A stretch of 35,913 nucleotides of DNA from Thermoplasmata archaeon (GCA_028864975.1 JAGWLG010000037.1:1-35913); one strand, 5' to 3'; shown: positions 4,149-35,216, numbered from the stretch's first letter. Notes: a model not told the origin generated them from the sequence alone. A program made the numbers and translations.

Positions 4149-4171
4149 GTCCCTAGGAAGGAGCAACCACC

Positions 4172-9963: not shown

Positions 9964-9994
9964 ATGCGTTGCGGCCCGACGCAGGTCGCCGAAC

Positions 9995-10687
9995 CTAGGT
10001 GGTCGGGGCCGGCGCGGCCGCGGGCGCCGCCACCTTCGGCAGGCTGATGATGCCGAAGAACAGCAGGATGATCCCGATGAACTCGGCGTAGTAGAGGAAG
10101 ACCGGGAAGGACGCGATGTAGAGCGTTCCCCCCGCCCCGAGCACCAAGGCTCCTGCGATGAGGAGCAGGGTCTGCCACTTTCGGCTCCGACGGAGTCCGA
10201 CGATGGCCGAGGCCAGGAGCACGACCGTCGCGGGGCCCGTGATGACGGTGGAGGCGAGGATCAGGCTCAAGGGGGGACTTCCCGAGATGATCCCCCCCAG
10301 GCCGCGCGGGCTGACCATCTGGGAGGGAGACACAGGTACCACGAAACTGATGACGCCGACGACCGCGGTGGCCGCCCAGATGAAGAGCGAGTATCCCCGC
10401 TCCAGGCGAGGGCTGCGCAGGACCCGGGTCGCCCCGAGGGAGAGCACCCCCACAAGGGCGGCGGAGAGGAAGATGTAGGCCTGAAGGAGAGGCACCGTGA
10501 CGACCCCATCGTACACGACCGCCTCCACGACCATCGCCAACGATGCAAGCACAAGCCCTGCGGCCCACATGAGTTGGACCCAGACACGTCTTGCCAGATA
10601 CTCCCGAACCCCGCGGATGCCGAGGAAGGCGAGCGCGGCAGCGAGGAGCCAGAGCGAGACGGCGATCGCCGCGGGGGTTGGGTCCAC
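9995..10687 (-). CDS. Uncharacterised ~7-TM membrane protein
   Basis: About seven hydrophobic segments; start set at GTG 10687 downstream of a GATATATG box. Confidence 0.7.
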   Translation of the reverse strand: MDPTPAAIAVSLWLLAAALAFLGIRGVREYLARRVWVQLMWAAGLVLASLAMVVEAVVYDGVVTVPLLQAYIFLSAALVGVLSLGATRVLRSPRLERGYSLFIWAATAVVGVISFVVPVSPSQMVSPRGLGGIISGSPPLSLILASTVITGPATVVLLASAIVGLRRSRKWQTLLLIAGALVLGAGGTLYIASFPVFLYYAEFIGIILLFFGIISLPKVAAPAAAPAPTT

Positions 10688-10903
10688 GTCAGACCTTGCT
10701 GCGGAGGCGAGCCCTGTCCCCCCATATATCGAACGCGGTCGTCCCAAGGCCACGCGGTCGGGATGTCGGGCCGAGCAGGGTGGACCCCGTGGCATGTCGC
10801 TCGGGCCAATCGCGTGGTGGAGACCTCACGTTCGAGGCGAACCGAGGTGGAGCCGCGTGTGGCACAAGGGAGTCGTTTTCCGCACGCTAACCCTTGTCGT
10901 TCG

Positions 10904-13900
10904 ATGCGGGTCGGACTGAGGGTCCCCCTCACCGGCGTCCTGTTCCTGCTGCTCCTCCTTCCCACGAGTCCCGTCGCACCGGTCCACCCCTCCGCGATGA
11001 GGGCGGACCCTCCCGTCCGCGCGTCCCAGAACCCGGGAGACCTCTTGGGGGCGCCGGCAGCCCCCGCCATCTCAGAGTCCCCCGCGTCACCATGGGTCGG
11101 CGGTACGGCTTCCCGCGGCACCCTTCCCATCCCTCGATGGACCCCGCTTCCCAGCTACATCTGGATGGTCCAGCTCCAGTTCTACAACATCTCGGGCACG
11201 CCCTACGCCCAGAGCGACTTCGACCGCATCGCGGCCAACGGCTACAACACCGTGGAGCTGATCGTCCCGTGGACCTTGGAGACCTCCCAAGGGGTCTACG
11301 ACTTCTCTCAGCTCGATACCTACATGGGCGAAGCCCAACAGGACGCGCTGGCGGTGGTCCTGGTCTTCTGGTACGAGGGTTGGACCTTCGGAGTGGCCAA
11401 TTGGGTACCGTCGTGGATCACCGCTCGAGAGACCTATTCGAACGGAGCGACTGCCTCTTACCCGCCGTGGTGGGACGCTGGTGCCCGCTCGGACTACTTC
11501 GGTTTCCTCAACGCCACGATCGCCCATGTTGACCCTGACGGCAACTTCCAAGGGGTCTACGCCCCGTTCGGATGGCTGGACTACCCTTGGTCCCCTCCCC
11601 CCTCGGGAGCCTCCGGGGCCGTGGTGGCGGGATATTCGGCCGCCACCACCGCGGCCTACGACTGGTACCTGGAGTCCCAGTGGGCATCTCTGGCCCAGTA
11701 CAACTCGGCGTACGGGACCTCGTACACCGCCTGGTCGCAGATACCCGCCTCTCTCCCCGGGAGCGCAGAGTGGAACGACTTCGGGAACTTCCGTATCTTC
11801 AGCGTCGAGCAGACCTTCGCTCAACTGAGCCAGTACGTCAGGGCCGTCACGAACCGGACGATCTTCTACTACTACGGCGGGGACATCTCTGGCGCTGTCG
11901 TTGGGGTCAATCTCGAGGACTACTACTTCCAGCTCGCCGCGCAGTACGGGGGGATCGTCAACGTCGACGACGCGGACTGGCCCGCGCTCGTCGCCACCTT
12001 TGGCTCACTTGCCTCGCGGTACCACGTGCCGTTCATCCAGGAGTTCACCCCGCCAAGCTCCGGCTTCCAGGGAGGCTTCGAAGAAACGATGGCCAACATG
12101 TACATCGGGCGCCCGTGGGAGGTCGGCGCGGACTTCTTCACCTACAATCCTCCGAACCCGAGCTTCGCCTGGGCCTTCCCCCTGTTCGGGAGCCTGCGGA
12201 GCATCACCGAAGCGACCGCCCCTTCCCAGACCCCGCAGAACGGCGTCGCGGCGCTGGTCAGCTACTTCTCGGGCTTCTACACCTTCGCGAACAACGGACA
12301 AGCCACCAACTCGTTGCCCACCCAGCAGAACTTCCTCTTCCAGCTCACGTACACGCACCGTCCCTTCGAAGTGGTGTCCGACCTTGAGCTGATGGCGAGC
12401 GCGGTGAACCTGACCCAGTTCTCCTCGGTCCTGGACCTGGGAAGCGCCTACGGCGACACGGCCCACGCACCGTACATCCAGGGAGATTTGCGATGGTTCG
12501 TCGGTCACGGGGGAAACCTCGTCGCATCTTCCAGCAGCGTCGCGTTCCTCAACGGGCAGCCGGCGCTCGTTCAGCTGAGCCTATCCCCGGCCCCTGCCGC
12601 CGACCAGATCGAGGTCCAAGGCACCTCTGTGCCCTCCTCCTCGGTGCTCTACCTCGCGGCCTGCAACTGGGACATCGACACGAACAGCGCGACCGCAGAG
12701 AGCGGTTCGCTGGGGGTCGTCCTCTCGACGTGGGGCTTGCCAGGGTTCGGGACCTACTACGTCAACGACCTGCTCTCGGGGACCACAACCTCGGTTACGG
12801 CAAGTTCCGGAGTGGTCTCGATACCCTGGAGCCCTGCCGCGGGCCAACTGAACTACTTCCAGCTGGTCCCCGCCACGCCGCTCATTTTGACGATCGCGAC
12901 CAATGCCTCGCAAGGAGAAGGCTCGCTCCCGGTCGCCCTGTCAGCTGCAGTCTCCGGTGGTACGACGATCTACGGGGCGGTCTCTTGGACCTTGGGGGAC
13001 GGTGCGACCGCCACAGGCTCTTCGATCACCCACACCTACGTTGCGCCTTCGGGTTCCGTGTTCACGGTGAACGCGACGGTCGCCGACTCCTCGGCGTCCA
13101 CCGTCACTTCGACCCTCCAGATCACGGTACTCCTGTCGCTCTCGATCTCGCTCTCCCCGGCCTTCGCCTGGGCGGAGGTCGGCGGTTCCAGGGTCGGGCT
13201 CCAAGCGACGAGCCGTGGTGGAGACGGTCCTATCAATCTCACCTGGAGCGACAATGGCTCCACCCTTCCGGGGGCCTTCGGTTGGAACCTCTCCTATGCG
13301 CCCACCATCGCGGGTAACCGAACCCTCTCCGTGCGGGCGCTCGACGCTCTCGGAGGACGCGCGGTCGCCGCAGTTCCGATCGAGGTCTTGCCTCCGCTCG
13401 CCGTCGCTCTGACCGGACCTTCCGTGGTCGAGCTCCCGGCGGGGGCGTCCTTCCTCGCCCACCTGTCCGGGGGTCGGCCCGGCTCCGCGGTTCTGTCCTG
13501 GTGGGTCGGCGGGACCAGGGTCGCCGGCGCGAACGGGACCTTGCTTTCCCTTCCCTCGTCGTCCTTCCCCAGCCTTCGCGCTGGCAATTACGTGATCAAC
13601 GCGACCGCCCTCGACGCCCTTGGAGGGAGGGCGAACTCGGCCCCCTCGTCGCTGGTCGTGGTCGCGCACGTTGCGGTTCGCATCAACCCCTCCAACGCCA
13701 ACGTCACCTTGGGCTCCTCGGCCCATCTGACCTCAACCACCGTCGGAGGGACGTGTCCTTGCCGCTACGTCTGGTTCGAGACCTCCCCGGTGCAGCTCAC
13801 AGGGGGCAGAGGTATGAACCAGACGGAGAATGCGACCTCGACCGGGACCTTCACCTTCGAGGTCAAGGTGATGGACAACCTTGGAGGGGCCGCGTTCGCG

Positions 13901-14203
13901 AACGCGACGATCGTGGTCCTCGCTCCACCGAGCTCCCCTCCACCGAACTCCCCTGCGCCAAACCCAGGGGGAGGTTGGTTCTCGATGCTCGGGTCGAACA
14001 CCCTCTGGGTTTTCCTGGTCCTACTGCTTGCGGTGGGAGGCGTTCTGGGGGCCCTGGAACTTCGCAGGCGTCGCCGAGGTGGATCGGCCCAGGCCGCTCC
14101 ACCGGCGCAAGAGGGCGGCAAGGCGCCCATGGTCGAGCCCTCGGGGTGGTCCGAGGACCCGAGCGGAGCGGACGAGGTCCTACCCGGTCCGCCCCCGCCA
14201 TAG
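10904..14203 (+). CDS. Secreted, C-terminally anchored GH42-like (beta/alpha)8 glycoside hydrolase with PKD/Ig-like domains (1099 aa)
   Basis: Signal-like N-terminus; DFDRIAANGYNTVEL..W....GVYDFSQLD; YNSAYGT; FIQEF; PKD motif SWTLGDG..THTY; Pro linker, TM helix and RRRRR. Confidence 0.8.
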   Translation: MRVGLRVPLTGVLFLLLLLPTSPVAPVHPSAMRADPPVRASQNPGDLLGAPAAPAISESPASPWVGGTASRGTLPIPRWTPLPSYIWMVQLQFYNISGTPYAQSDFDRIAANGYNTVELIVPWTLETSQGVYDFSQLDTYMGEAQQDALAVVLVFWYEGWTFGVANWVPSWITARETYSNGATASYPPWWDAGARSDYFGFLNATIAHVDPDGNFQGVYAPFGWLDYPWSPPPSGASGAVVAGYSAATTAAYDWYLESQWASLAQYNSAYGTSYTAWSQIPASLPGSAEWNDFGNFRIFSVEQTFAQLSQYVRAVTNRTIFYYYGGDISGAVVGVNLEDYYFQLAAQYGGIVNVDDADWPALVATFGSLASRYHVPFIQEFTPPSSGFQGGFEETMANMYIGRPWEVGADFFTYNPPNPSFAWAFPLFGSLRSITEATAPSQTPQNGVAALVSYFSGFYTFANNGQATNSLPTQQNFLFQLTYTHRPFEVVSDLELMASAVNLTQFSSVLDLGSAYGDTAHAPYIQGDLRWFVGHGGNLVASSSSVAFLNGQPALVQLSLSPAPAADQIEVQGTSVPSSSVLYLAACNWDIDTNSATAESGSLGVVLSTWGLPGFGTYYVNDLLSGTTTSVTASSGVVSIPWSPAAGQLNYFQLVPATPLILTIATNASQGEGSLPVALSAAVSGGTTIYGAVSWTLGDGATATGSSITHTYVAPSGSVFTVNATVADSSASTVTSTLQITVLLSLSISLSPAFAWAEVGGSRVGLQATSRGGDGPINLTWSDNGSTLPGAFGWNLSYAPTIAGNRTLSVRALDALGGRAVAAVPIEVLPPLAVALTGPSVVELPAGASFLAHLSGGRPGSAVLSWWVGGTRVAGANGTLLSLPSSSFPSLRAGNYVINATALDALGGRANSAPSSLVVVAHVAVRINPSNANVTLGSSAHLTSTTVGGTCPCRYVWFETSPVQLTGGRGMNQTENATSTGTFTFEVKVMDNLGGAAFANATIVVLAPPSSPPPNSPAPNPGGGWFSMLGSNTLWVFLVLLLAVGGVLGALELRRRRRGGSAQAAPPAQEGGKAPMVEPSGWSEDPSGADEVLPGPPPP

Positions 14204-17568: not shown

Positions 17569-18600
17569 CTACGTGGGAACGGGGGTCATGAGTTCTCCAC
17601 GGGCTCCGGTCTCGATGGTGCTCCCGGTCGCGCGGGTCGTCGCCGGACAATAGGCTCTGGCCAGATAGGCGGACACGTCCGCGATCTCGATCTCTGCGGG
17701 CGCGGCTCTCCGCAGGTTCGCGAGGCACAGAGGGCAGAGCGTTACGACGCGTTGGGAGGCCTTCGCGAGCTGGTCCACGCGCTGTGCGGCGACCTCGCGA
17801 GACTTCCCCGGGAAGAGCATCTCGATGGGACCGCCGCAGCACTGTGTGGCTTTGGCCGATCTTTCCACTTCGTGGATAGTCACCCCGCCTCTCCGCAGGA
17901 GGTCCCGCGGCTGCTCGATGACCCCCTCCCTCCGGGCGTAGATGCACGAGTCGTGGATGGTCACGCTCTCGGAGAGCCGCTTCACAGGCTCGGGTCGAGC
18001 TTCCTCCAGGACCTCGAGGTAGGTCCGGACCTTGAGGTCGAACCCCTCGAGGATCTTCGGGTAGACCGTTCGTAACATGTCCGTGGTGTGAGGGTCGATG
18101 GTGATGACCTCGCGGACCCCATGCTCCCGCAGGAGGGTCTGGACCCGCTGGGCATGGGCCTTGAGCGCGTCATCGAGACCCTCGTCATGGGCCAAGGCCC
18201 CCGCGTACAGGTCGTCCTCGTAGAGGTAACCGAACTCCACATGGGCGGCGCGGAGGAGCGCCACGATGTTCCTGAGGTACCCGGAATACTCGCGCGCCTC
18301 CCGCGGGTCGCCACGGGCCATGAGGCCCGCGAGATTGAAGAGGCGGTTCATGCTCCGAGCGAGGCCGAAGTAGCTCGACATCCACGAGCCTTCCATCTTC
18401 GACAGGCGCTCGGTCATCGCGTTGATGGCCGGGACCATCTGGTACATCTGACCGGTGTAGAGCACGGTCGCCCCGCCGCGGGGGAGGTCGAGGCCCTTCG
18501 TCCACGAGAGCAGCCTCCGACGCGAAAGGGGGAGGACGCTCTTGCGCTTGCGCAGGTTGTCGCTGAGCATGCCCAGCGTGTGCTTGATCGGGGTCGGCAT
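17569..18600 (-). CDS. HdrB/HdrD-like (Fe-S)-binding CCG-domain protein, one intact CCG domain
   Basis: C-X34-CCGG-..-CPLC in the C-terminal half; N-terminal half has no Cys (LYAG and DPHT at the equivalent sites). Confidence 0.8.
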   Translation of the reverse strand: MPTPIKHTLGMLSDNLRKRKSVLPLSRRRLLSWTKGLDLPRGGATVLYTGQMYQMVPAINAMTERLSKMEGSWMSSYFGLARSMNRLFNLAGLMARGDPREAREYSGYLRNIVALLRAAHVEFGYLYEDDLYAGALAHDEGLDDALKAHAQRVQTLLREHGVREVITIDPHTTDMLRTVYPKILEGFDLKVRTYLEVLEEARPEPVKRLSESVTIHDSCIYARREGVIEQPRDLLRRGGVTIHEVERSAKATQCCGGPIEMLFPGKSREVAAQRVDQLAKASQRVVTLCPLCLANLRRAAPAEIEIADVSAYLARAYCPATTRATGSTIETGARGELMTPVPT

Positions 18601-18603
18601 GTT

Positions 18604-18918
18604 TCATCCCTCCACCGGGGCGAGCTGCATCTCCTCGCGGGCGAGGAGGACCCGGAGCGCGCGAACGTTCTCCGTGATGTGGACCCCCGCAGGACAGTTC
18701 TCCTCGCACATCTTGCAAAGGAGACAGGAGTAGATCGTGTCGGTCTCTTCCAGGACCTTCTCTTCGGCCCCCAGCAGGACGTATCGGAAGAGCTTCCGAG
18801 GAAGGAGGTGGATCCCTATCGGGCAGAGCGCCGTGCACTGGCCGCAGTTGAGGCACGCCTCGGCGTTGAACGGGGTGCCCTTGGAAACGCGCTCGGCGAA
18901 GCTCGGGTCGACCTTCAT
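18604..18918 (-). CDS. HdrC-like 2x[4Fe-4S] protein
   Basis: CLNCGQCTALCP and CLLCKMCEENCP; PRKLFRYVLLG. Confidence 0.85.
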   Translation of the reverse strand: MKVDPSFAERVSKGTPFNAEACLNCGQCTALCPIGIHLLPRKLFRYVLLGAEEKVLEETDTIYSCLLCKMCEENCPAGVHITENVRALRVLLAREEMQLAPVEG

Positions 18919-19163
18919 GCTCCCTCCACACGGCGGTAGCGAGTGTACTCTTCCTCGGCACCCTTCGGGAGGTCGGCGACCTTTCCGTACCTCCGGAGCA
19001 TCATCACCCAGAGCGCGACCTCCCTCGTCGGCGCGTGGAGCACCTCGGCGATCTCGGGAATGGTCTTCGGCCCCTCCGCGAGCGACGCCAGGAGCTCGCG
19101 CTGCAGCGACATCCCGTCCCGCAGCACCTCGCTCAGGTCGCGCAACGGTGCCACCGCCGCCAT
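18915..19163 (-). CDS. Small winged-helix protein within the hdr-like operon
   Basis: LLASLAEGPKTIPEIAEVL..LRRYGKV wHTH pattern; 4-nt overlap with the hdrC-like gene. Confidence 0.7.
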   Translation of the reverse strand: MAAVAPLRDLSEVLRDGMSLQRELLASLAEGPKTIPEIAEVLHAPTREVALWVMMLRRYGKVADLPKGAEEEYTRYRRVEGA

Positions 19164-19167
19164 CTTC

Positions 19168-20913
19168 CTACTCCTCCTCCGAGGCGAGCGCCTCGATCAT
19201 GGAACGCATCTGATCGTGGGTGTACCCTTCGACCTCGATCGCCTGGAGCGGGCAGACCGGGACGCAGGCCCCCTCTCCCTTGCAGAGCACCGGGACGACC
19301 TTGGCCACCCGCTTGTCCCCTTCGGCGACCTCCTCGATCGCCCCATAGGGACAAGCCTGGGCGCAGAGGCCGCACCACGTGCAAGCGCTCGTGTCGATCT
19401 TCGCGACCAGGGGATCCAGGTCGACGTAGCCCTTCAGCAGGATGCCCGCCGTCTTTGATACAGCGGCGAGGGCGCTCGCGACGCTCTCGGCCGTGTTCTT
19501 GGGCCCCTGCGCGGTCCCCGCCAGGAAGACCCCGTCGACGACCGTCTCGACAGGGCGAAGCTTCTGGTGGATCTCGTTGTAGAACCCTTCCTTCCCCACC
19601 GGCAACTTCAGGACGTCCGTCAGGACGGTGTTCTCCCGCGGGACCATCCCCGTGACGAGGACCACCAGGTCGGTCGGGATCTCGACCCCTTCTCCCCCCG
19701 TGAGCTGGTCCGCGACCTTGACGAGGAGGCCACCGCCCTCTCGCGTCACCGTTGGCGGCGAGTCGTCCTTGTAGCGCAGGAACAACGAACCGCTCTTGAG
19801 CGCCCGCTCGTAGAGCGACTCGTACTTTCCGTAGGTCCGGATATCGCGGAAGAGGTGGTACTGTCGGACGTGGGGGTCTCGTCCCGCAGCGCGGATCGCC
19901 GCGTACGAGGTGGCGCTGCAGCAGTAGCGGGAGCAGTAGGTGTGACCCTCGGGATTGCGAGAGCCCACGCAGTAGACGTACGTGATCGTCCGGACCGGCC
20001 GGCCGTGGAACTCGATGGGCCGGCTGCCATCTCCGAGCAGCTCCTCGAACTCGGGGAGGGTGAGGACCCCGTCCTCTCCGTACCCGAACTCCCCCTTGGG
20101 AGGGGTGTACGGCTCGAATCCTGTGGCGACGACGATGGCGCCGACCTTCAAGGTGACCTTCTCCCCGTTGCTCGTACGGACCTTGACGGTGAAGTCGCCG
20201 ATGTGACCCTCCTTTTCGACGACCTCGGCGCGGGTGTAAAGGACGATGTTGTCCCTTCGTCCCAGCTCGGAGAGCAGGGAGTCCACGATCGCGCGGCCGC
20301 TCTTGTCGTTGGGGAAGAGCCGGGCCCAGCGCGTCAGCTGGCCCCCTGGCTTCTCCGCCCTTTCGACGAGGTGGACCGAGATCCCAAGGTCGGAGAGCGC
20401 AAGCGCGGAACGGAGGCCGGAGACCCCGGCCCCGACCACCAAGGCGCTCGGGGCGGTGTCGGTCCGGATGGGCTCAAGGGGACGCGACCGGACGGTGCGC
20501 GCGATCGCCGCCCGGGTGATCGCGACGGCCTTGTCCGTCGTCCCCTGGCGATCATGGGTATGGGCCCAGGAGTCCTGCTCCCGGACGTTCGCCTGGGTGT
20601 ACTCGTACGGGTTGAGGCCGCCCCGTCGAGCGGCGCCCCGGAACGTCATCGTGTGGAGCTTCGGAGAGCAGGAGGCGACGACCAGCCCGTCGAGCTTCTT
20701 CTCTTGGATGGCCCGGACGATGCACTGCTGCCCCGCGTCGGAGCAGGCGAACATCTGGACCTCGATGTGCGCGACCCCCGGGTCCTTCTCGAGGGTGGCC
20801 CGGGCCTTCTCGGTGTCCACGTAGTCGGAGATGTTCCCTCCGCACTGGCAGAGGAAGACGCCGACGCGACGTTCCTTGGGGGCCGGGACCTCCTGGGACG
20901 GGTCCTCGCTCAT
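19168..20913 (-). CDS. hdrA: HdrA-like flavoprotein (581 aa) with N-terminal GVFLCQCG domain and C-terminal ferredoxin
   Basis: GVFLCQCGGNI, CSPKLH, NVREQ, VVGAGVSG, CVGSR..CSRYCC, CTWCGLCAQACP; real start ATG 20913 overlaps the upstream TGA. Confidence 0.88.
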   Translation of the reverse strand: MSEDPSQEVPAPKERRVGVFLCQCGGNISDYVDTEKARATLEKDPGVAHIEVQMFACSDAGQQCIVRAIQEKKLDGLVVASCSPKLHTMTFRGAARRGGLNPYEYTQANVREQDSWAHTHDRQGTTDKAVAITRAAIARTVRSRPLEPIRTDTAPSALVVGAGVSGLRSALALSDLGISVHLVERAEKPGGQLTRWARLFPNDKSGRAIVDSLLSELGRRDNIVLYTRAEVVEKEGHIGDFTVKVRTSNGEKVTLKVGAIVVATGFEPYTPPKGEFGYGEDGVLTLPEFEELLGDGSRPIEFHGRPVRTITYVYCVGSRNPEGHTYCSRYCCSATSYAAIRAAGRDPHVRQYHLFRDIRTYGKYESLYERALKSGSLFLRYKDDSPPTVTREGGGLLVKVADQLTGGEGVEIPTDLVVLVTGMVPRENTVLTDVLKLPVGKEGFYNEIHQKLRPVETVVDGVFLAGTAQGPKNTAESVASALAAVSKTAGILLKGYVDLDPLVAKIDTSACTWCGLCAQACPYGAIEEVAEGDKRVAKVVPVLCKGEGACVPVCPLQAIEVEGYTHDQMRSMIEALASEEE

Positions 20914-23624
20914 GCCTCGGCCCTCCTCTTGAGATAGGCCGCGATCTGGGCGCTCGCGGCGCCCGAGTGCAGCACGGTATCGGGGATGTCGCGGACCGCG
21001 GAAGCCGCGCCGACGGCGAACACCCCGTCGATGTTCGTTCGGCCCGGGTCGAGCTCCTCGTCCATCTCTCGGACGTAGTTCAGGGAGTCGCGTTCCAGCC
21101 TCTCGCCTTGGAAGAGCCGGTCCGGGAGCTGATGGGGGAGGAGCCCCACAGCGAGGACGACCAGATCGTGTCGGGCCTTGGTCACCCCCCCGTTCCCCTC
21201 GAAGTCCTCGTAGTGGACCTCCAGGTCCTGATGGTCGACCTCCTCGACCCGTGCGACCTTCCCCCGGACGAAGCGGACCCCCATCTCCTGGGCCTGCTGG
21301 AAGAACTCTTCGTACCCCTTCCCGAAGGCGCGGATGTCCGTGTAGTAGATCGTGATGTCCGCTGTCGGGAGCGCCCCCATCAGGAGCGTCGCCTGCTTCA
21401 CCGAGTACATGCAGCAGACCCGCGAGCAGGCCCGGTTGCCCACCTGCTCGTCGCGCGAGCCGGTGCAAAGGACGAACCCGATGTTCGAGGGAGACTTCCC
21501 ATCTGAAGGGCGGAGGACCGCGTTGTAGGGACGCGTCGGGGCGAGGATCCGGTCCATCTGGACCCCGGTGATGACGTTCGGGAACTTGCCGAACCCCAGG
21601 AGCGGTTTCTTCTGGGCGTCGAAGACGTCGAACCCCGTGGCCAGGGCGATGGCCCCGACCTTGTAGGTCTCCATCTGCGTTGCCATGTGGAGGTCGATCG
21701 CGTCCGCGGGGCAGGCCGCGATGCACTCCCGGCATTCCGAGCATCCGCCGCAGTCCAGGCATCGGGTCGCACCGTACCGAGCCTCCTCTTCGGTCATCGC
21801 CCGCTCGAAGGGGGCGAACGCGCGGATCCGCTCCGCGACGGGGGCCCTTTCCACCTCCCTGGGCGGGCGGGACGAGGCCTGCGCCACCACCGCCGCTTTG
21901 TCCGCGACCGGCATCCGGACGTCGAACTGGATCCCTTGGAGCGGCGTCCCCCTCAGGAATCGGTCGATGTAGAACGCGGCGCGCTTCCCTTGACCGATGG
22001 ACCGCACGATGTTCGCAGGTCCCATCACGGCGTCCCCCGCCGAAAAGGTCCGCGGATCGGACGTCTGGAGGGTCTCGGGATCGGCCTTGACGCTCCCGCC
22101 CCGGTTCAGCTCCAGCTCCTTCGCGAAAGGTGAGGTCTGGGGACGGAGCCCGATCGCCAGGAGGATTACTTCCGCCCCAACACGCTCGCTGACCGTTCGG
22201 TCGAAGGTGGGATTGAACCTCTTCTGCGCGTCGAAGACGGAACTGCACCGGACCATCTCAAGTCCTGTCGCACGCCCTTCGGCTCCGGTCTCGACCTTCC
22301 CCACGCCCCACGAGGGGTGGATCGAGATGCCCTCCTCCTCGGCCTCCTGCACTTCCCAGCGGTGCGCGGGCATCTCCAGGCGGGACTCCAGGCAATAGAG
22401 GTCGACCTTCGCGGCCCCGAGGCGCAGGGCGCTGCGAGAGGAGTCCATCGCGACGTTGCCGCCTCCGATGACCACGACCTTCTTCCCGCGTAGGTCCATG
22501 GGTCTTCCCGCGCGGACACCCCCCAGGAACTCGACGGCATCCACGACCCCGGGGGCCTCCTCTCCCGGCGCCCCGAGCTTGCGTCCCCCCGTGCTACCCA
22601 CCGCGAGCAGCACGGCATCGTACCCGTGGAGCTCCTGCAGCGACCGGACCGCGGTGGACGTCCGGATCTCGACCCCGAGCGCGGTGACGTTCATCACGTC
22701 CCTCGCGAGCACCTCTCGGGGAAGTCGGTAGGCGGGGATCCCCCATCGCATGATGCCCCCCGGTTCCGGGGCCGCTTCGAAGATCGTGACCGAGTGCCCC
22801 TCTCGTCCGAGGTAGAAGGCGGCGGTGAGACCACTCGGGCCCGACCCTACGATGGCCACCTGCTTGCCTGTCCTCTCCTTCGGGGGTCCGTATTCGGGCT
22901 CCGGATGGGCGGCATAGTACCGATCGGCCATGAACCGCTTGATCCCTCGGATCGTGACCGTTCCGTCGACCTCGGCCCGGGTGCAGGCCTCTTCGCAGGG
23001 CGCGTAGCATGCGCGGCTCAGGACCCCGACCAGGGGTGCGTCCTCCAGATGCTGGCGGAAGGCCTCGTCGTACTTCCCCGCGCGAACGAGGGAGATGTAC
23101 CCGTGGGGCTTCACGCCCGCCGGACATTCGTGGGAGCAGGGGGAGAGCCCCTTGCGCGTGATGACCGCCTTCTTCGGTACGGCCTGAGGGAACGCGATGT
23201 GGGCCGCCTTCCGGGCCGCCAGGTCCGCGTTGAACTCGTCGGGGAGGGCGACGGTGCAGGCGGTCTCGCAGAGGCTGCACCCGGTGCACTTGGCGAAGTC
23301 CACGTAGGTGGGTTTCCGTCGGACGACGACCTCGAACCCGCCCTCCGGTCGCCGGGAGATACGCTCGACCTCGCTGTAGACGAGCGTCCGGACGTTCGGA
23401 TGGTTCTGCGTGCCGGCCATCTTGGGGGTCGAGATGCAGCTCGCGCAGTCGAGCGTCGGGAAGACCTTCGACAGGAGGATCATCTTCCCCCCCACGCTCG
23501 GCTCCTTCTCGACGAGCAGGACATGGAATCCCATGTCGCCCAGCGAGAGGGAGGACTCCATCCCGCCGATCCCGCCCCCGATCACCAGGACGTCGAAATC
23601 GCTCCCCCTTCCCCCTTCGGTCAT
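20910..23624 (-). CDS. Large HdrA-like protein with inserted GltD/NfnB-like NAD(P)H-FAD module (HdrL-type)
   Basis: GGGIGG, FPTLDCASC, CTGCSLCETAC; insert CSHECP..RACYAPCEEAC, GSGPSG, GGGNVAMD; return to CLDCGGCSECRECIAACP, CTGSRD, CSRVCC. Confidence 0.88.
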   Translation of the reverse strand: MTEGGRGSDFDVLVIGGGIGGMESSLSLGDMGFHVLLVEKEPSVGGKMILLSKVFPTLDCASCISTPKMAGTQNHPNVRTLVYSEVERISRRPEGGFEVVVRRKPTYVDFAKCTGCSLCETACTVALPDEFNADLAARKAAHIAFPQAVPKKAVITRKGLSPCSHECPAGVKPHGYISLVRAGKYDEAFRQHLEDAPLVGVLSRACYAPCEEACTRAEVDGTVTIRGIKRFMADRYYAAHPEPEYGPPKERTGKQVAIVGSGPSGLTAAFYLGREGHSVTIFEAAPEPGGIMRWGIPAYRLPREVLARDVMNVTALGVEIRTSTAVRSLQELHGYDAVLLAVGSTGGRKLGAPGEEAPGVVDAVEFLGGVRAGRPMDLRGKKVVVIGGGNVAMDSSRSALRLGAAKVDLYCLESRLEMPAHRWEVQEAEEEGISIHPSWGVGKVETGAEGRATGLEMVRCSSVFDAQKRFNPTFDRTVSERVGAEVILLAIGLRPQTSPFAKELELNRGGSVKADPETLQTSDPRTFSAGDAVMGPANIVRSIGQGKRAAFYIDRFLRGTPLQGIQFDVRMPVADKAAVVAQASSRPPREVERAPVAERIRAFAPFERAMTEEEARYGATRCLDCGGCSECRECIAACPADAIDLHMATQMETYKVGAIALATGFDVFDAQKKPLLGFGKFPNVITGVQMDRILAPTRPYNAVLRPSDGKSPSNIGFVLCTGSRDEQVGNRACSRVCCMYSVKQATLLMGALPTADITIYYTDIRAFGKGYEEFFQQAQEMGVRFVRGKVARVEEVDHQDLEVHYEDFEGNGGVTKARHDLVVLAVGLLPHQLPDRLFQGERLERDSLNYVREMDEELDPGRTNIDGVFAVGAASAVRDIPDTVLHSGAASAQIAAYLKRRAEA

Positions 23625-23633
23625 GGCCCCTCC

Positions 23634-24125
23634 TCAGGCTGCGGTCGCGGTGACGCCGTTCGCGACCTTCTCGGTGGGAAGGTCCGCCAGGGGCGGTGTC
23701 CGATGCGCCGCGAGCTTCGAGAGCTCCTCGCCGAACTTCTTCATGTGCGCCGCGAAAGGCTCGGCGCAGACCGAGCAGACCGCAGCCATCTTCAGCCGCG
23801 CGGGGTCATACCCGGCCGCGCGCATCAGCTCCTGCGTGCGCGCGACGATCCGCCCGGTCCTCGCCGAGCAGTCGGAGATCTTCGCACAGTCGCTTCCGTC
23901 GGCGGCGATGAAGACCCCGTCGAACCCCACCTCGAAGGCGTGCAGGACCCAGCGGGGGTCGATGCCGCTCGAGCAGGGCACCGCGAGGACACGTACGTGG
24001 GGCGAGTAGGCGACGTGCGCGCTCCCGGCGAGGTCAATCCCCGAGTCCGAGACGTTGTTCGTCGAGAGGACGAGGATGCGAGGACCCCGACCGGACGGAC
24101 CGCCGCCCGGCGCCGCGGAGGTCAT
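23634..24125 (-). CDS. MvhD/FlpD-family iron-sulfur subunit, variant Cys pattern
   Basis: DLAG..Y..VRV..VPCSSGIDPRWVLHAFEVGFDGVFI matches MvhD; lacks the N-terminal CxxC, has a C-terminal CSVC. Confidence 0.75.
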   Translation of the reverse strand: MTSAAPGGGPSGRGPRILVLSTNNVSDSGIDLAGSAHVAYSPHVRVLAVPCSSGIDPRWVLHAFEVGFDGVFIAADGSDCAKISDCSARTGRIVARTQELMRAAGYDPARLKMAAVCSVCAEPFAAHMKKFGEELSKLAAHRTPPLADLPTEKVANGVTATAA

Positions 24126-24137
24126 GGGTCGGGTCCC

Positions 24138-24392
24138 TCACTTCATCCGGCGGACGTAGATCCGCCAGAAGCCCGCGTCCGCTACGGTTCCGAGGTACTC
24201 GTGGCCGACCTTCCTCGCCCAGAGCGGCACGTCGGTCGTCGTCCCCTCGTCCGAGGAGATGACCTCCATCACCCCGTGCAGGGGCACGCTGGCCATCTGG
24301 CGCTTCGCCTCCAACAGAGGACCGGGGCAGGCCATGCCCCTCGCGTCGACGACCTTGTCCGCTCTCACGTTCTCCAGGACCGTGGCTTGCAT
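24138..24392 (-). CDS. tusA: TusA-family sulfur carrier
   Basis: VDARGMACPGP motif, 84 aa; SD GAGGAGG. Confidence 0.9.
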   Translation of the reverse strand: MQATVLENVRADKVVDARGMACPGPLLEAKRQMASVPLHGVMEVISSDEGTTTDVPLWARKVGHEYLGTVADAGFWRIYVRRMK

Positions 24393-24442
24393 GTTCTTCC
24401 TCCTCCTCTCTTAGGTTCCTTGTGGCGATCGTGTTCCTTCCT

Positions 24443-24772
24443 TCACTCCGCATACGACTGGGAGAGGATGCGACGTATCCTCGCGCAGCAGCCTCCGAGG
24501 GCCGGGTTCGACAGGCGATAACGCACCGCGTGCCCGCTCCGTTCCGCGCGAACGATCCCCTGGTCGCGCATCACCCGCAGGTGCTGGGAGACGTTGGGCA
24601 TGGCGAGGTCGAGCTCTTCGGCGAGCCCTGTGACCGTGGCCGCGCTGTGCGCAAGGAGGTCGACGATCATCAATCGCTTGGGGTGCGCCATCGCCCGGAG
24701 GGCATGGGCCTCCCGTTCGAACATCCAGCTCGAGGCGGGCCGGGGATGCCGCCGCGATCGAACCTGCCTCAT
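24443..24772 (-). CDS. ArsR/SmtB-family transcriptional regulator
   Basis: LRAMAHPKRLMIV, PNVSQHLRVMRDQGIV, vicinal CC in the last helix. Confidence 0.9.
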   Translation of the reverse strand: MRQVRSRRHPRPASSWMFEREAHALRAMAHPKRLMIVDLLAHSAATVTGLAEELDLAMPNVSQHLRVMRDQGIVRAERSGHAVRYRLSNPALGGCCARIRRILSQSYAE

Positions 24773-24789
24773 GGTGCCCCTCCTGCCCC

Positions 24790-25356
24790 CTAGATGAACA
24801 GCGTCATCCGGCTCCGGTCCGCCGCATCGATGAACGAGCCAACGTTCCCGAAGGTGAGCCCATCAATGAGCTCCTCCTTGCGAATGCCCATGAGGTCCAT
24901 CGACATCGTGCACGCGATGAACCGCACGCCCTGCTCCTGGGCGCTCCGAATCAGGTGGGCGAGGTCGTCCACGTGCTTCTTCGCCATCTCCCGCTTGATG
25001 AGCCGGGTGCCGAGGCCACCCATCTTGAGCTTCGAGAGCTGAAGTCCGGCAGGTCCGTTCGGCATCATCGCGCCGAACATGCTCTCCATCGTGGTCTTCT
25101 TCTTCGCGACCTTGATGTGTCCGCCGCGGCGGAGCACGTTCAGTCCCCAGAACGTGAAGAACATGCTCACCGGCAGGTCCATCGCCGCCGCTCCGTTGGC
25201 GATGATGAACGCCGCGAGGACCTTGTCCAGGTCCCCGGAGAAGACGACCATCGAAAGACCTTCGACGTGGGTCGGCTCTTCAGCGGGGAGCGACATCGCT
25301 TCCGCCTTGGCGTGAAGTTCGTGAGAGATCGGCGCAGACATCGTGGCGCTCGTCAT
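24790..25356 (-). CDS. DsrE/DsrF/DrsH-like (DrsE_2-type) sulfur-relay protein
   Basis: VVFSGDLDK..AFIIANGAAAM..FFTFWGLN; IACTMSMDLMG; SD GAGG before ATG 25356. Confidence 0.9.
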   Translation of the reverse strand: MTSATMSAPISHELHAKAEAMSLPAEEPTHVEGLSMVVFSGDLDKVLAAFIIANGAAAMDLPVSMFFTFWGLNVLRRGGHIKVAKKKTTMESMFGAMMPNGPAGLQLSKLKMGGLGTRLIKREMAKKHVDDLAHLIRSAQEQGVRFIACTMSMDLMGIRKEELIDGLTFGNVGSFIDAADRSRMTLFI

Positions 25357-25380: not shown

Positions 25381-25405
25381 ACTTGCAGGACATTGCAATC
25401 CAAGT
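25381..25405. promoter_or_regulatory. Nested palindromes upstream of dsrE2-arsR: candidate ArsR operator
   Basis: ACTTG-N15-CAAGT, TTGCA-N6-TGCAA and perfect ATTGCAAT (25392-25399), 25-49 nt upstream of the dsrE2 ATG. Confidence 0.5.
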
Positions 25406-25661: not shown

Positions 25662-25841
25662 ATGACGGGTTACAACTTCGCCTGCAAGGACATTGGCATG
25701 ACCTGCGGCTTTGAGATCCGGGGTGCGACATCGAAAGACGAGATCTTCCAGGAGGCGGCGGCCCACGCGAAGGTCGCTCACAAGATGGCCACGATCCCGC
25801 CCGACGTGGCGACCAAGGTGAGCGCGGCGATCCACGCCTGA
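25662..25841 (+). CDS. DUF1059-family small metal-binding protein
   Basis: FACKDIGMTCGF..EI...AAAHAKVAH; SD GAGGT before ATG 25662. Confidence 0.8.
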   Translation: MTGYNFACKDIGMTCGFEIRGATSKDEIFQEAAAHAKVAHKMATIPPDVATKVSAAIHA

Positions 25842-25900
25842 AGGGGTCGGTCGTCGCGCGTGAACCCCGGGCCCCCGGTGGCCCGGGGGCGGTCTGCCCC

Positions 25901-26566
25901 TCAGCACTCCGAACCGGAGGGCTCCTCCCTCCTGCGAAGGAGCTGCCCGTAGTGGTGGGGACCAAGGTCCCAGGTACGCACGACCTTGAGCCCGAAAGCG
26001 GAGAGGCGACTCGCCGCCTCCTCGGGAGAGAGGCGGATCTCGAGCGGGGGCCCCCAGGGGGTCTCCTGCTTCGACCAATCGAGATTGACGAAGCATCCGC
26101 CAGGGCGAAGGAGGCGAACGGCCTCCGCGACGGTGGGGTCGGGCACATCATGGAGCACGGTAGCGAGCAGGACGACGTCGGCGACGCCCGAGGGGAGAGG
26201 GATCTTTTCGACCGTCGAGCGGACGGGGTGGAGCCAGGGGAGCTTCTCCCTGCGTCCCCGTTCGCTGAGGTAGTTCACGAGTTCGCTGGAGACATCGATC
26301 GCGTAGACCGCCCCCTTCGCGCCGACGCGCTGCGCTGCGGGGGTCGCAAAGTATCCGGTCCCCGCGCCGACGTCCGCGACGACACTTCCGGGAAGGAGCC
26401 CCACTTCTCGCCATAGGGACTCGGGGTCCAGGATGCGTCGGCGTTCCGGGCTCTCGAGAGCTTCGAGGGCCCGGTCGACGCTCCAACCGGGGCCCCCTCC
26501 GTGGTGGTGATGCGCCTGGTGCCCGTGGGCGCTCGGAGGGACCTTGGAGGGCGCTGGGCGTTTCAT
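25901..26566 (-). CDS. Class I SAM methyltransferase with His-rich N-terminus
   Basis: VADVGAGTGYF, VYAIDV, LLRPGG; HGHQAHHHH; start ATG 26566 overlaps the DUF302 stop. Confidence 0.85.
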   Translation of the reverse strand: MKRPAPSKVPPSAHGHQAHHHHGGGPGWSVDRALEALESPERRRILDPESLWREVGLLPGSVVADVGAGTGYFATPAAQRVGAKGAVYAIDVSSELVNYLSERGRREKLPWLHPVRSTVEKIPLPSGVADVVLLATVLHDVPDPTVAEAVRLLRPGGCFVNLDWSKQETPWGPPLEIRLSPEEAASRLSAFGLKVVRTWDLGPHHYGQLLRRREEPSGSEC

Positions 26567-26970
26567 GGGGCTCGGGGAACGGCGGCCGCCTTGACCGCGT
26601 TCTGCAGTCCGACCTCCACCTCCTCGGCGAGGCTCTCGAACTCCTTCGAGGGCATCAACGAGCGGATGAGGGTCGTCGGTCGGACCAGCGATATCCGGGT
26701 CTTCCCCTTCTCCAGCGACACGACGATCTTGCAGGGGAGGAGCCACGCCGCATCCCGGGAGATCTCCAGCGCTCTCTTCGCCTGCCTCGGAGAACAGACG
26801 TCGAGGATGACGATGGGGTCGATGACCGCACCCAACTTCTCTTGGAGCGTGTCGTGGACGCGGAGCGTTGCCAGGATCCCGAACCCTTCCGCCTTCAGCC
26901 GCTCCTCCAGGGCGCGCACGGCCCCGTCGACCGTGCCGGGGTATTCCACCGAGAGGTCGAGCGAGCTCAA
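26563..26970 (-). CDS. DUF302-family protein
   Basis: EGFGIL..L.VHDTLQEKLG..ILDVCSP..A..AL....A.LLPCKIVV; TTG start overlaps the thioredoxin stop. Confidence 0.85.
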   Translation of the reverse strand: MSSLDLSVEYPGTVDGAVRALEERLKAEGFGILATLRVHDTLQEKLGAVIDPIVILDVCSPRQAKRALEISRDAAWLLPCKIVVSLEKGKTRISLVRPTTLIRSLMPSKEFESLAEEVEVGLQNAVKAAAVPRAP

Positions 26971-27416
26971 GTTCCGTTCCCTCCCAGACCGAAGGCACGG
27001 TGGATCCTCGCGTTCAGGACGTCCTTCGGCATCGCCCCCACGACGCGGTCGACCAGCTTGCCCCGCTGGAAGAGCAGCAACGTCGGGATCCCCTGGACCC
27101 CGAAGGTCGCAGGGATGTCCGGCTCTTCGTCCGAGTTGAGCTTGCCGAACTTCACCGCTCCATCGAGCTCATGCGCCAGGGCATCCACCGTCGGGGCGAG
27201 GTAGCGGCAGGGACCGCACCACGGGGCCCAGACATCGACCACGGCGCGGGGGTTCTCCTGGAGGAACGTGGTGAAGGTCGCGGAGGTGAGATGGGCCGGG
27301 GAGGGGTCCGAGGTCGATGGGGGGGCGGGCGAAGGTCGATGCTGGAGCTCCGCGGTCCGCTTGGCCCGCCAGGCGTAGAGCTCACGGTCCTCGGCCGGCG
27401 GGGTCACCTTGGTCAT
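26967..27416 (-). CDS. trxA: Thioredoxin
   Basis: VVDVWAPWCGPC, GIPTLL, DRVVGA; start trimmed to ATG 27416. Confidence 0.92.
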   Translation of the reverse strand: MTKVTPPAEDRELYAWRAKRTAELQHRPSPAPPSTSDPSPAHLTSATFTTFLQENPRAVVDVWAPWCGPCRYLAPTVDALAHELDGAVKFGKLNSDEEPDIPATFGVQGIPTLLLFQRGKLVDRVVGAMPKDVLNARIHRAFGLGGNGT

Positions 27417-27670
27417 GGGGCACCCCCTCGGAAGCAACAGCTGCGGCCGAGATTGTCCATCGCGCCGGGGTTCCCCCCCATGGCGAGTCCCATATGATCG
27501 GCGCAGAGACTTGGCATCCGTTGGGGTTTCGGGGTCATGCCGGCCTCGCAGTCGTCGGAGGAAAAAGAGCACGCGTGAAATCGGATTGACCCGAAGCGCG
27601 TTCCGGAGGCCTCTCGACCCGCAGAGCCCGATCGGGGCCGCCCTCCAGGACGGGCGGGGAGGAACGGGAC

Positions 27671-28096
27671 TCACTCGGCATCAGGTCGAGCCCCGGGCGA
27701 AGGGTCCCGGGATGAGGCGGCAAGACCGGCGGCGACGTGGGACCCCGAAGAGCCCTGGTCATCCGCGTCCTTCGGGCTCAGGCGGCGAAGCTCCCGCTGC
27801 ACCCGATCCCACTCCTTGCGGGGGACCGCGATGCTCTCTTCATCGTCCTCCTCTTCTTCGCGCTCTTCCCTCGCGAAGAGCAACAGGACCCCGGCGACCA
27901 GGGCGATCGCGCCCAGGACCAGGAACAGCACCCAGTACGGGGGCGTTCCCGAGCGGGCCGGCACCGCATGGAGGGAGATCGCGAGGAAGCAGGACAGCCC
28001 TCCACCGAACAGGAAGGGGAGCGCGACCATCCACCGGTCGGGCGCACCAGGAGGTTCGTGGCCGGTCTCCGGGGCCGGGTCGTCCGGGGCGTTCAC
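27671..28096 (-). CDS. Orphan 2-TM membrane protein with acidic linker and short cytoplasmic helix
   Basis: Two hydrophobic helices, EEREEEEDDEES, VPRKEWDRVQRELRRL; GATATAGG box 34 nt upstream of GTG. Confidence 0.7.
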   Translation of the reverse strand: MNAPDDPAPETGHEPPGAPDRWMVALPFLFGGGLSCFLAISLHAVPARSGTPPYWVLFLVLGAIALVAGVLLLFAREEREEEEDDEESIAVPRKEWDRVQRELRRLSPKDADDQGSSGSHVAAGLAASSRDPSPGARPDAE

Positions 28097-30407: not shown

Positions 30408-30839
30408 TCAGTCAGTATCGCCGCGGCGCGCTTCGGGGGCATAGCGATACCAGGCCCGCCCCACCAAGCGATCCCCCGGGACCGGCCCGAACGCCCGACT
30501 GTCGCGGCTCTCGTCCAGGGCGTCTCCTCGTACTTCGACATGGAACCTTGGACCCCCGTGAAGCTCCGGGGGTCCCGTCGTGACCTTCGCCACCCGCTTG
30601 AGGAGGAGCCGTCCCTCGACCTCAGGGTCGTGGAGCACGATCACCTCCCCAGGCGTGGGAGGGGGGAACCTCACGTTCCACCGCTCCACGAGTAGGCGGT
30701 CCCCCGGCTGGAAGGACGGGACCATGCTCCGGTCAGCGACCACGAACCTTCGGCTTCTCAAACGACGGAGGAGCCATCCCCAGCGCCCCCGAGGTCCTCG
30801 GGGAGCTGGCGGCCTCACCGGTGGGGCTTCGACAGGCAT
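30408..30839 (-). CDS. sodX: Ni-SOD maturation protease (S26 family)
   Basis: RSM.P, LLKRV, GD..ESRDSRAFG (Ser/Lys dyad, boxes B/D/E); head-to-head with sodN. Confidence 0.85.
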   Translation of the reverse strand: MPVEAPPVRPPAPRGPRGRWGWLLRRLRSRRFVVADRSMVPSFQPGDRLLVERWNVRFPPPTPGEVIVLHDPEVEGRLLLKRVAKVTTGPPELHGGPRFHVEVRGDALDESRDSRAFGPVPGDRLVGRAWYRYAPEARRGDTD

Positions 30840-30869
30840 CCTTTATTGTCCGCCTCCTTCCGGCCGAAC

Positions 30870-31400
30870 ATGTCCGCGCTATCCCACCTTCGGACCCAGC
30901 TCGCGAGCGCCCTGGACGCCATCGTGCCCCCCGCCACGGTCTACGCGCACTGCGACATCCCGTGCGGGATCTACGACCCCCACGAGGCCCAGATCGCGGC
31001 CTTGACCGTGATCCGGATGAACCAGCTCATCGGCGAGCTCAAGCCCCCGGCGGCCGACGCGAAGCCGGAGGAGCGGACGGTCTTCGTCCACAAGCTCGCA
31101 CGATACACCGCGATCAAGGAACAGCATGCCGAGCGGGTCAAGCACGAGGTCCGCGTCATCTGGGGCGACTACTTCACCCCCGACATGGTGAAGGCCCACC
31201 CGCAGGCGACCGAGCTGGTCTTCAAGATCATGAAGTGCGCCTCCAAGGCCCGGCAGGAAGCGAGCATGGCGTCGGCCGAGGAGCTCAACGGATGCGTGCA
31301 GGAGTTCGCGGAGCTCTTCTGGAAGACCAAGGACACCAAGACGGCGCGGCTCCCCTCCCATCAGAAGGCCGGTGGGACCTTGGTCGTCCCGACGGCGTAG
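30870..31400 (+). CDS. sodN: Nickel superoxide dismutase precursor
   Basis: Leader followed by the Ni-hook HCDIPCGIYDP; WGDYF; CTTTATTG box 29 nt upstream of ATG 30870. Confidence 0.95.
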   Translation: MSALSHLRTQLASALDAIVPPATVYAHCDIPCGIYDPHEAQIAALTVIRMNQLIGELKPPAADAKPEERTVFVHKLARYTAIKEQHAERVKHEVRVIWGDYFTPDMVKAHPQATELVFKIMKCASKARQEASMASAEELNGCVQEFAELFWKTKDTKTARLPSHQKAGGTLVVPTA

Positions 31401-35187: not shown

Positions 35188-35216
35188 GCCTCTCCTGTGT
35201 CCTCGCGACGGGGTCC

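Follow-up and report, generated by a model that had tools for sequence, protein, structure and literature searches.

What does a gene set resembling heterodisulfide reductase (Hdr) do in an archaeon when it is accompanied by the sulfur carriers TusA and DsrE2 and by no hydrogenase? This question is raised by a stretch of 35,913 nt (GCA_028864975.1, JAGWLG010000037.1:1-35913; in the following called the window), contig C20 in the metagenome-assembled genome of a soil archaeon of the Thermoplasmata (3.6 Mb, 124 contigs, 89.6% complete, approximately 67% GC). On its minus strand, to which the coordinates of all operon genes refer, positions 17569–25356 hold nine co-oriented genes in the order dsrE2, arsR, tusA, mvhD, hdrL, hdrA, wHTH, hdrC and hdrB*; wHTH denotes a small winged-helix gene and hdrB* is our name for a single-CCG hdrB. 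The nine genes form a genuine and highly conserved operon which encodes a variant of the Hdr/Qmo-type complexes, in an archaeal host that most likely acquired it from bacteria. As for its function, we see roughly an even chance that the product is an oxidoreductase between NAD(P)H and TusA/DsrE2-bound sulfur, in which electrons pass to the cluster of HdrB* and bifurcation to ferredoxin is possible.

The nine-gene set of the initial annotation was recovered in full, with the genes assigned by their Pfam and NCBIfam matches. From dsrE2 to hdrB* the intergenic gaps are 17, 50, 12, 9, -4, 4, -4 and 3 nt, and every internal gene has its own ribosome-binding site, a GGAGG-type motif 5–10 nt before the start. 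The close spacing together with these motifs therefore indicates one operon. Overlapping stop and start codons, initially reported for several junctions, exist at hdrL/hdrA and wHTH/hdrC only; elsewhere short gaps separate the genes. The order tusA-mvhD-hdrL-hdrA-wHTH-hdrC-hdrB* recurs in more than 60 fetched loci of other genomes, nine from the window's family and more than 50 others, at 49–79% identity per protein, and thus the operon is far beyond chance. The nine family loci come from eight genomes and hold the whole operon in identical order. In the more than 50 loci of the wider HdrB* set described below, the order is kept wherever the contig is long enough, at approximately 50–65% identity to the window. 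Strict co-linearity thus extends over Thermoplasmata and no fewer than 14 named bacterial phyla. In nearly all full-length related loci, tusA heads the conserved module.

Among 301 Thermoplasmata genomes, full-length HdrL orthologues (59–71% identity) were found in the window's own family only, in 11 of its 37 other genomes, a count that takes in the unpublished G098 and G212, neither of which has a full-length match; these orthologues also span two further genera of the family. When 185,579 species genomes were scanned by motif and tblastn for the HdrB* family, 488 loci were obtained. Neighbourhoods, scanned within 6 kb of the module, and taxa are given here for the best 80 of them. These belong to Thermoplasmata, Chloroflexota, Ignavibacteriota, Zixibacteria, Calditrichota, Planctomycetota, Nitrospirota, Kiritimatiellota, Acidobacteriota, Gemmatimonadota, Actinomycetota, Bacillota, Pseudomonadota and Deltaproteobacteria, and they include two cultured hosts, Pontiella sulfatireligans F21 and Desulfallas sp. 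Bu1-1. Operon carriers come from soils, sediments, aquifers and hot springs (hundreds of species). The initial supposition that similar clusters may exist in bacteria is strongly borne out by this synteny survey, with its 488 species-level matches. A DsrE-family gene adjoins the module in 43 of the 80 loci; apart from this family, only ArsR, DUF2173, a sigma-54 response regulator and a handful of others recur as neighbours, and no recurring hydrogenase, formate dehydrogenase, DsrC or lipoate-binding protein was found in these flanks. Two loci, L041:12988-16443 (G230) and L044:8068-11623 (G266), are reduced second copies with TusA, wHTH and HdrL only. Their HdrL is 59–61% identical to that of the window, HdrA, MvhD, HdrC and HdrB* are missing, and the neighbours are unrelated (AbrB/PhoU-type regulator, low-molecular-weight phosphatase).

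The most distinctive gene is hdrL (20910–23624, 904 aa). It encodes an HdrA-type flavoprotein with an inserted NfnB/GltD-like module for FAD and NAD(P)H. Residues 1–130 and 621–899 are the two HdrA halves, which match PDB 5odc and 9sfi with E-values of about 1e-95 to 1e-100, and the GltD/NfnB-like module occupies approximately residues 139–620 (about 480 residues), splitting the inserted ferredoxin domain. Matches of the insert are PDB 9bov, 9n5u, 8oh5_C (StnC) and NfnB 4ylf_B. Among the electron-bifurcating transhydrogenases NfnAB and StnABC (PDB 4ylf, 5jca, 8oh5), NfnB and the NfnB-like part of StnC can be aligned with the insert from end to end (about 400–455 residues), and the alignment covers the FAD site, the nucleotide site and both [4Fe-4S] sites; an NfnA partner, however, is missing here. 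The NAD(P)H module initially described as fused in HdrA is thus confirmed as an NfnB-like insert, and the protein that carries it is HdrL.

HdrL retains the motifs FPTLDCASCI and C-x-GSRD...CC and is devoid of the N- and C-terminal domains of HdrA. The next gene, hdrA (19168–20913, 581 aa), provides N-terminal, FAD and C-terminal 2x[4Fe-4S] domains. It is of the methanogen type (5odc_A, E 4.5e-106, versus E 9e-33 for the sHdrA structure 6tjr) and lacks the inserted ferredoxin domain: the alignment omits approximately residues 242–314 of 5odc_A, and the DCxxC motif is gone, too. In methanogen Hdr this inserted domain carries the clusters HA5 and HA6, which lead to ferredoxin (PMC6019823). The complementary losses of domains and cysteines in HdrL and HdrA are kept in 54 out of 54 orthologues compared. 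Therefore they suggest that an HdrL/HdrA heterodimer replaces the HdrA homodimer of methanogens, the four domains which stand in one chain there being divided between two proteins here.

A further difference from NfnB and StnC concerns the nucleotide site. Their YRR motif, the arginines of which bind the 2'-phosphate of NADPH in Rossmann folds, is replaced by CLE in the HdrL of the window (within 22350–22470; residues approximately 385–425). In the 54-locus alignment YRR is present in most bacterial HdrL orthologues, and CLE or CVE in Thermoplasmata, Chloroflexia, the Pontiella sulfatireligans group, Anaerolineales and one Gaiellales row; the lone Thermoplasmata exception with YRR is L072. An acidic residue at this Rossmann position usually marks a preference for NADH. 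Two cofactor classes are therefore predicted, CLE/CVE forms using NADH and YRR forms using NADPH, and CLE in place of YRR suggests that the archaeal HdrL prefers NADH.

At the other end of the operon, hdrB* (17569–18600, 343 aa) matches PF02754 once, at residues 213–297. HdrB* has a single complete CCG motif (C219, C254, C255, C289 and C292), and its first 218 residues are cysteine-free. In the N-terminal half DPHT stands in place of CxxC, with DPH invariant where relatives have CPHC; D169 and H171 of HdrB* are conserved. According to the family profile the CCG motif aligns with residues 105–242 of methanogen HdrB, that is, the C-terminal CCG domain. The one HdrB-like gene of the initial annotation therefore holds as a one-cluster subunit with a single CCG domain. 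HdrB* relatives form 117 representative clusters at E<1e-30, nearly all with the five-cysteine pattern, and the only other CCG protein of the genome sits on another contig. For the AlphaFold2 model (predicted local distance difference test, pLDDT, 91) Foldseek lists the cytoplasmic domain of EtfD first (9ojn, TM 0.68), followed by LutA and by HdrB 5odc_B (TM 0.51). The adjacent hdrC-like gene (18604–18918, 104 aa; PF13183/PF13534) has two CxxCxxCxxxC motifs and reaches 56 bits, below cut-off, with TIGR03290. Neither HdrB* nor HdrC has a predicted membrane segment.

Between hdrA and hdrC there is always wHTH (18915–19163, 82 aa), which has no Pfam match and shows 43–68% identity in related loci. 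Its AlphaFold2 model (pLDDT 87.7) is a minimal winged helix with the cores of ArsR, SmtB and MarR as nearest folds. The protein contains no cysteine; W52, R57, R58, Y59 and G60 are invariant and form a strongly conserved W-x4-RRYG helix. A word-index search found 42 clusters only, and a protein atlas together with tblastn showed a much wider family.

The carriers are encoded at the head of the operon. DsrE2 (24790–25356, 188 aa; PF13686, E 3e-54) is a DsrE2-type sulfur carrier with one cysteine and the motif FIACTMS; it reaches 88 bits with NF047629, below the cut-off of 210. The sulfur carrier TusA (24138–24392; PF01206, E 2e-19) shows the active-site motif GMACPGP. A second TusA-domain gene of the genome (G000:C32:161682-161894) lies within a 228-aa open frame and possibly encodes a fusion protein. 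Between tusA and hdrL, mvhD (23634–24125; PF02662, E 8e-27, model positions 1–122 of 123) codes for an MvhD/FlpD-type [2Fe-2S] electron-transfer subunit.

Which substrates are available to such proteins in this host? Genome searches found no DsrC (PF04358), no sulfite-reductase domain, no DsrAB and no YedE/YeeE. DsrC was therefore rejected as a substrate in this organism, and TusA and DsrE2 are left as the sole candidate thiol substrates encoded nearby. The genome encodes a heme-copper oxidase and four 2-oxoacid:ferredoxin oxidoreductases; from the latter it follows that ferredoxin is in use. Judged by its genes, the host looks like an aerobic or facultative heterotroph without a known dissimilatory sulfur pathway. 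One might also think of carriers handling selenium, with a YedF-like TusA and a complex which reduces carrier-bound selenium, as there are weak matches between TusA and YedF and of HdrL, HdrC and HdrB* to NF045663 (an oxidoreductase/dicluster protein model, diclust_near_Sec, a name suggesting selenium-gene neighbourhoods). These YedF and NF045663 matches are, however, far below the cut-offs, and the best selD match in the genome has 71 bits versus a cut-off of 125. With no selD above cut-off and no YedE, we rejected a role in selenium metabolism, which appears scarcely credible.

The preferred reading, a link between NAD(P)H and carrier-bound sulfur, can be put as a regulated cytoplasmic complex of flavins and iron-sulfur clusters, related to heterodisulfide reductase, in which NAD(P)H would be coupled with redox changes of the sulfur borne by TusA and DsrE2. 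As to assembly, we infer a heterodimer in which HdrA would give the N- and C-terminal cluster domains and HdrL the inserted ferredoxin domain plus the NfnB-like module, with MvhD, HdrC and HdrB* docking as they do in methanogen Hdr and the wHTH protein acting as a small adaptor subunit or as an internal regulator. Electrons from NAD(P)H would pass through flavins and clusters to HdrC and from there to the single non-cubane cluster of HdrB*. At this site a persulfide, trisulfide or mixed disulfide on TusA or DsrE2 would be reduced with release of sulfide, comparable to the action of DsrK on DsrC. Part of the energy might be directed to ferredoxin by flavin-based electron bifurcation, with ferredoxin binding at the side of MvhD and the C-terminal ferredoxin domain. 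Support for this carrier-sulfur, possibly bifurcating reading comes from DsrE carriers and regulators being the only recurrent neighbours of the module and from the methanogen-type, bifurcating HdrA. It is further supported by the HdrABC/HdrL set of Syntrophobacter fumaroxidans (Sfum_0819-0824), which is made only with sulfate and has been proposed as a reductant of DsrC (PMC5947623).

Could the complex instead run in the oxidative direction, like the sulfur-oxidising sHdr? TusA/DsrE2-delivered sulfane sulfur would then be oxidised and NAD(P)+ reduced. Two types of sHdr have been described, type I with shdrC1B1AHC2B2 and type II with shdrC1B1AHB3-etfAB-emo (PMC11094781). The operon shares with them the tusA and dsrE genes at its head, an ArsR-type regulation and, by position, a small open reading frame between hdrA and hdrC, so that the order hdrA, small frame, hdrC, hdrB mirrors shdrA-H-C2-B2. 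Furthermore, sHdrB3, the terminal HdrB-type subunit of type II, likewise has a single non-cubane cluster (PMC11094781), and an aerobic host would suit an oxidation. However, the operon has a single HdrC/HdrB pair, without shdrC1B1, and lacks Etf and EMO, its HdrA is far nearer to methanogen HdrA than to the short sHdrA, sHdr systems contain neither MvhD nor an NfnB-like insert, and many carriers of the operon are strict anaerobes (Dehalococcoidia, Desulfallas, Pontiella). A lipoate-binding protein is also missing: in agreement with the initial annotation, no lbpA is present in the window, nor is there one among the ten recurrent flank families of the 80 loci, no genome-wide search for LbpA having been made. 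Taken together, we consider the oxidative direction quite improbable.

A difficulty for HdrB* as the site of sulfur chemistry comes from relatives of the operon within the Thermoplasmata. A profile of the wHTH protein found weaker relatives in five other families and in one genome of the window's family. Six such sibling loci were fetched (L150:5595-11374 of G127, and L151 to L155). In five of them the encoded proteins are DsrE, TusA, MvhD, an HdrA' without NAD(P)H insert, HdrA, wHTH and an HdrC-like protein; the sixth lies on a short contig which ends before the upstream genes. The last gene, looked at in detail in L150, encodes a QmoC-like membrane protein, matching the qmoC model over its full length with 190 bits and showing five to six hydrophobic segments. 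The constant core is thus formed by the carriers, MvhD, two HdrA paralogues and wHTH, whereas HdrC/HdrB* with the NAD(P)H insert on the one hand and QmoC on the other are exchangeable ends.

Several points weigh against the proposed function. The sibling operons keep DsrE and TusA but have neither a CCG protein nor HdrB* nor the NAD(P)H module, and if the ends are exchangeable, the case that TusA-bound sulfur reacts at HdrB* is weaker. EtfD, the best structural match of HdrB*, is not a known disulfide reductase. With its heme-copper oxidase the host is an aerobe, and its genome revealed no pathway of sulfur respiration or sulfur oxidation. NAD(P)H, at -320 mV, gives little drive for ferredoxin reduction unless the potential of the sulfur acceptor is clearly higher. 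Finally, our literature search found no experimental data on this operon from any organism. Of the initial proposal, NAD(P)H-linked and possibly bifurcating persulfide chemistry stands as the most economical reading. The QmoC siblings make the part played by HdrB* as sulfur site uncertain.

These siblings lead directly to another explanation, in which HdrC/HdrB* would be an equivalent of QmoC, an electron exit or entry to quinone or another carrier, and the sulfur on TusA/DsrE would react with the conserved core of HdrL/HdrA, MvhD and the wHTH protein, as AprAB does with QmoAB. In addition to the QmoC siblings in five other Thermoplasmata families, which do without a CCG subunit, the fold of HdrB* fits such a role, since its nearest match is the cytoplasmic part of the ETF:menaquinone oxidoreductase EtfD, and so do the orphan TusA-wHTH-HdrL triads without HdrA, HdrC and HdrB*. 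Yet no membrane segment is predicted for HdrB* or HdrC, the five-cysteine CCG motif is invariant and does thiol/disulfide chemistry in Hdr and DsrK, and the core proteins offer no evident thiol-reactive site, the wHTH protein being cysteine-free. We therefore regard an electron exit at HdrB* as rather unlikely.

A further possible role is that of a non-bifurcating housekeeping or detoxifying NAD(P)H:persulfide/polysulfide reductase, which would remove sulfane sulfur or supply sulfide without conserving energy. The patchy, accessory-like occurrence in the family (11/37 genomes), the ArsR-type regulator with its conserved cysteine, thioredoxin and nickel superoxide dismutase genes nearby and the missing dissimilatory sulfur pathway of the host are all in agreement with it. 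Nevertheless, two bifurcating-type flavoproteins plus MvhD are far more elaborate than the known persulfide or CoA-persulfide reductases, and the rigid conservation of seven subunits across phyla points to a coupled reaction, so that we judge a mere detoxifying function to be unlikely.

How the operon is controlled can be addressed at its 5' end. The gene arsR (24443–24772, 109 aa; PF01022, E 8e-14) encodes an ArsR/SmtB-family regulator with a weak BigR-like match (54 bits versus a cut-off of 155); a single cysteine, located in helix alpha-5, is conserved among its orthologues. At 25383–25398, 27 nt upstream of the dsrE2 ATG, lies the palindrome TTGCAATGTCCTGCAA, of the form TTGCA-N6-TGCAA and without assigned strand. 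It is the sole match in the 35.9-kb window, where 0.03 would be expected. The same box is found upstream of dsrE2 in the ArsR-bearing Thermoplasmata loci L064, L065, L068 and L113, and the ArsR-less loci L066, L075, L078, L080 and L082 have TCAAC-N4-5-GTTGA there instead. From this pattern we regard TTGCA-N6-TGCAA as a candidate ArsR operator; ArsR would probably repress the operon at this box until a sulfur signal modifies the conserved cysteine. In bacterial loci the strict pattern TGCA-N5-9-TGCAA occurs in 6 of 25 with ArsR and 1 of 21 without. Since most ArsR-bearing bacterial loci have no match, it was rejected as a general bacterial operator, and in view of this poor generalisation the box is a lead only for the branch of Thermoplasmata and Chloroflexia.

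Where does the operon come from? In a concatenated HdrL+HdrA+HdrB* tree of 54 rows all Thermoplasmata form one clade with support 100. This clade is nested in a Chloroflexota grade, and the remaining bacterial phyla lie on the far side. With HdrL-HdrA pairs from further Thermoplasmata families as outgroup, the tree was rooted among Bacillota and Actinomycetota and the nesting was kept. These trees come from quick searches with long outgroup branches and composition bias, and some rows may be mis-binned. For instance, L075 is labelled 'bacterium' yet stands inside the Thermoplasmata clade and is probably a mislabelled bin, and the row next to the archaeal clade, as its sister, is L077, which bears the label Dehalococcoidales. 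An archaeal origin was rejected, as the outgroup root is among bacterial rows and the archaeal clade is nested beside Chloroflexota. It is likely that the operon was transferred from Chloroflexota-like bacteria to this archaeal family; the direction is likely, not proven.

To which of the known systems does the operon belong? Membership in Hdr-Mvh, sHdr, Flx-Hdr and Qmo was rejected in each case on defining features, and the initial statement that the locus matches neither methanogen Hdr-Mvh nor sHdr is upheld. Methanogen HdrABC-MvhAGD (5odc) has in common with it the HdrA, MvhD, HdrC and the HdrB fold, but there is no hydrogenase here, HdrB* has no N-terminal cluster, the HdrL/HdrA pair with its complementary losses takes the place of the HdrA homodimer, and the substrate cannot be CoM-S-S-CoB. 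No mvhA or mvhG was found in the window, as initially noted, and a PF00374 search of the 89.6% complete genome for the large subunit of NiFe-hydrogenase gave a single match, covering 70 model positions, in a frame of 388 aa that looks like a complex-I subunit. FlxABCD-HdrABC of Desulfovibrio vulgaris, as far as it is cited in PMC5947623 and PMC10504309, likewise combines a pyridine-nucleotide donor, an Hdr-type core and a small thiol/sulfur protein as acceptor, and ferredoxin bifurcation has been proposed for it. According to these same citations it differs by an NADH site in separate Flx subunits, where the window has the NfnB-like insert of HdrL and no FlxA-D, and by a two-CCG HdrB with DsrC as partner in place of TusA/DsrE. 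QmoABC, especially the 'type II' HdrA-like Qmo (PMC10504309), shares two HdrA paralogues and an HdrC-type ferredoxin module; in contrast to it, the window operon is devoid of a membrane subunit (its HdrC has 104 aa) and of AprAB, and it possesses HdrB* and the NAD(P)H insert in addition.

The nearest described relatives are the HdrL loci of sulfate reducers. HdrL in tandem with hdrA4 and hdrCB was drawn in 2009 for locus VIII of Desulfobacterium autotrophicum HRM2 (PMC2702500), and the HdrL-type domain build is also that of the 'type III HdrA' described from methane-metabolising archaea (PMC12054007). Together with the S. fumaroxidans set, these loci have in common with the window an HdrA with inserted GltD-like NAD(P)H module, an adjacent MvhD without hydrogenase, the tandem hdrL/hdrA, HdrC/HdrB-like partners and a thiol protein as proposed substrate. 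TusA, DsrE2 and wHTH, in contrast, are not mentioned in PMC2702500, PMC5947623 or PMC12054007, and the S. fumaroxidans set differs in gene order, in having an FdhB-like FeS protein and in DsrC as substrate, which was not found in this genome. Full-text searches found no paper describing or testing tusA-mvhD-hdrL-hdrA-wHTH-hdrC-hdrB*. The initial claim of a new system without characterised archaeal example is thus correct in that no functional study was found, but the system belongs to a widespread bacterial family and parts of it have been described. New here are the aerobic host in which no DsrAB or DsrC was found, the YRR and CLE classes, the candidate ArsR operator and the QmoC-ended siblings in Thermoplasmata.

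Several other genes of the window may be mentioned. Directly upstream of dsrE2, at 25662–27674, are a DUF1059 gene (plus strand), an S-adenosylmethionine (SAM) methyltransferase gene and a thioredoxin-domain gene. The same trio is located downstream of hdrB* in the close relatives L064 and L065, where the operon lies on its opposite side. A nickel superoxide dismutase gene (30696–31400) is in keeping with a life in contact with oxygen, and the gene for an MCM helicase (33034–35259) confirms the archaeal host. Positions 947–5353 hold a polyhydroxyalkanoate-type set with a short-chain dehydrogenase, a PhaE-like protein, a PhaC-like alpha/beta hydrolase and an enoyl-CoA hydratase. An open frame of 1498 aa (9707–14203) shows recognisable domains, PKD and Y_Y_Y, only close to its end, and given the GC content of 67% its 5' part may be spurious.

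Hdr-type complexes are central to anaerobic energy conservation, and outside the methanogens few have a known substrate. The operon described here is among the most rigidly conserved Hdr-type sets, with seven core genes in one order which are tied to sulfur carriers. It is also tractable, with two cultured hosts, small soluble partners, a predicted switch between NADH and NADPH at a defined position and a candidate operator. We tentatively put forward, at well below even probability, that HdrL/HdrA represents a new class of bifurcating enzyme, which would combine NfnB-type and HdrA-type flavins and use TusA/DsrE-borne sulfane sulfur as high-potential acceptor, so that NAD(P)H could reduce ferredoxin. 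Cells without genes for sulfur respiration, including aerobic soil archaea, would then gain low-potential electrons from zero-valent sulfur, and NADH-type (CLE) and NADPH-type (YRR) versions together with a sister system linked to quinone (QmoC) would tune the enzyme to different lifestyles. If NAD(P)H does reduce carrier-bound sulfur, the operon would stand for a widespread and so far uncounted sulfide-forming and sulfur-handling route in organisms which marker-gene surveys fail to count among the sulfur metabolisers.

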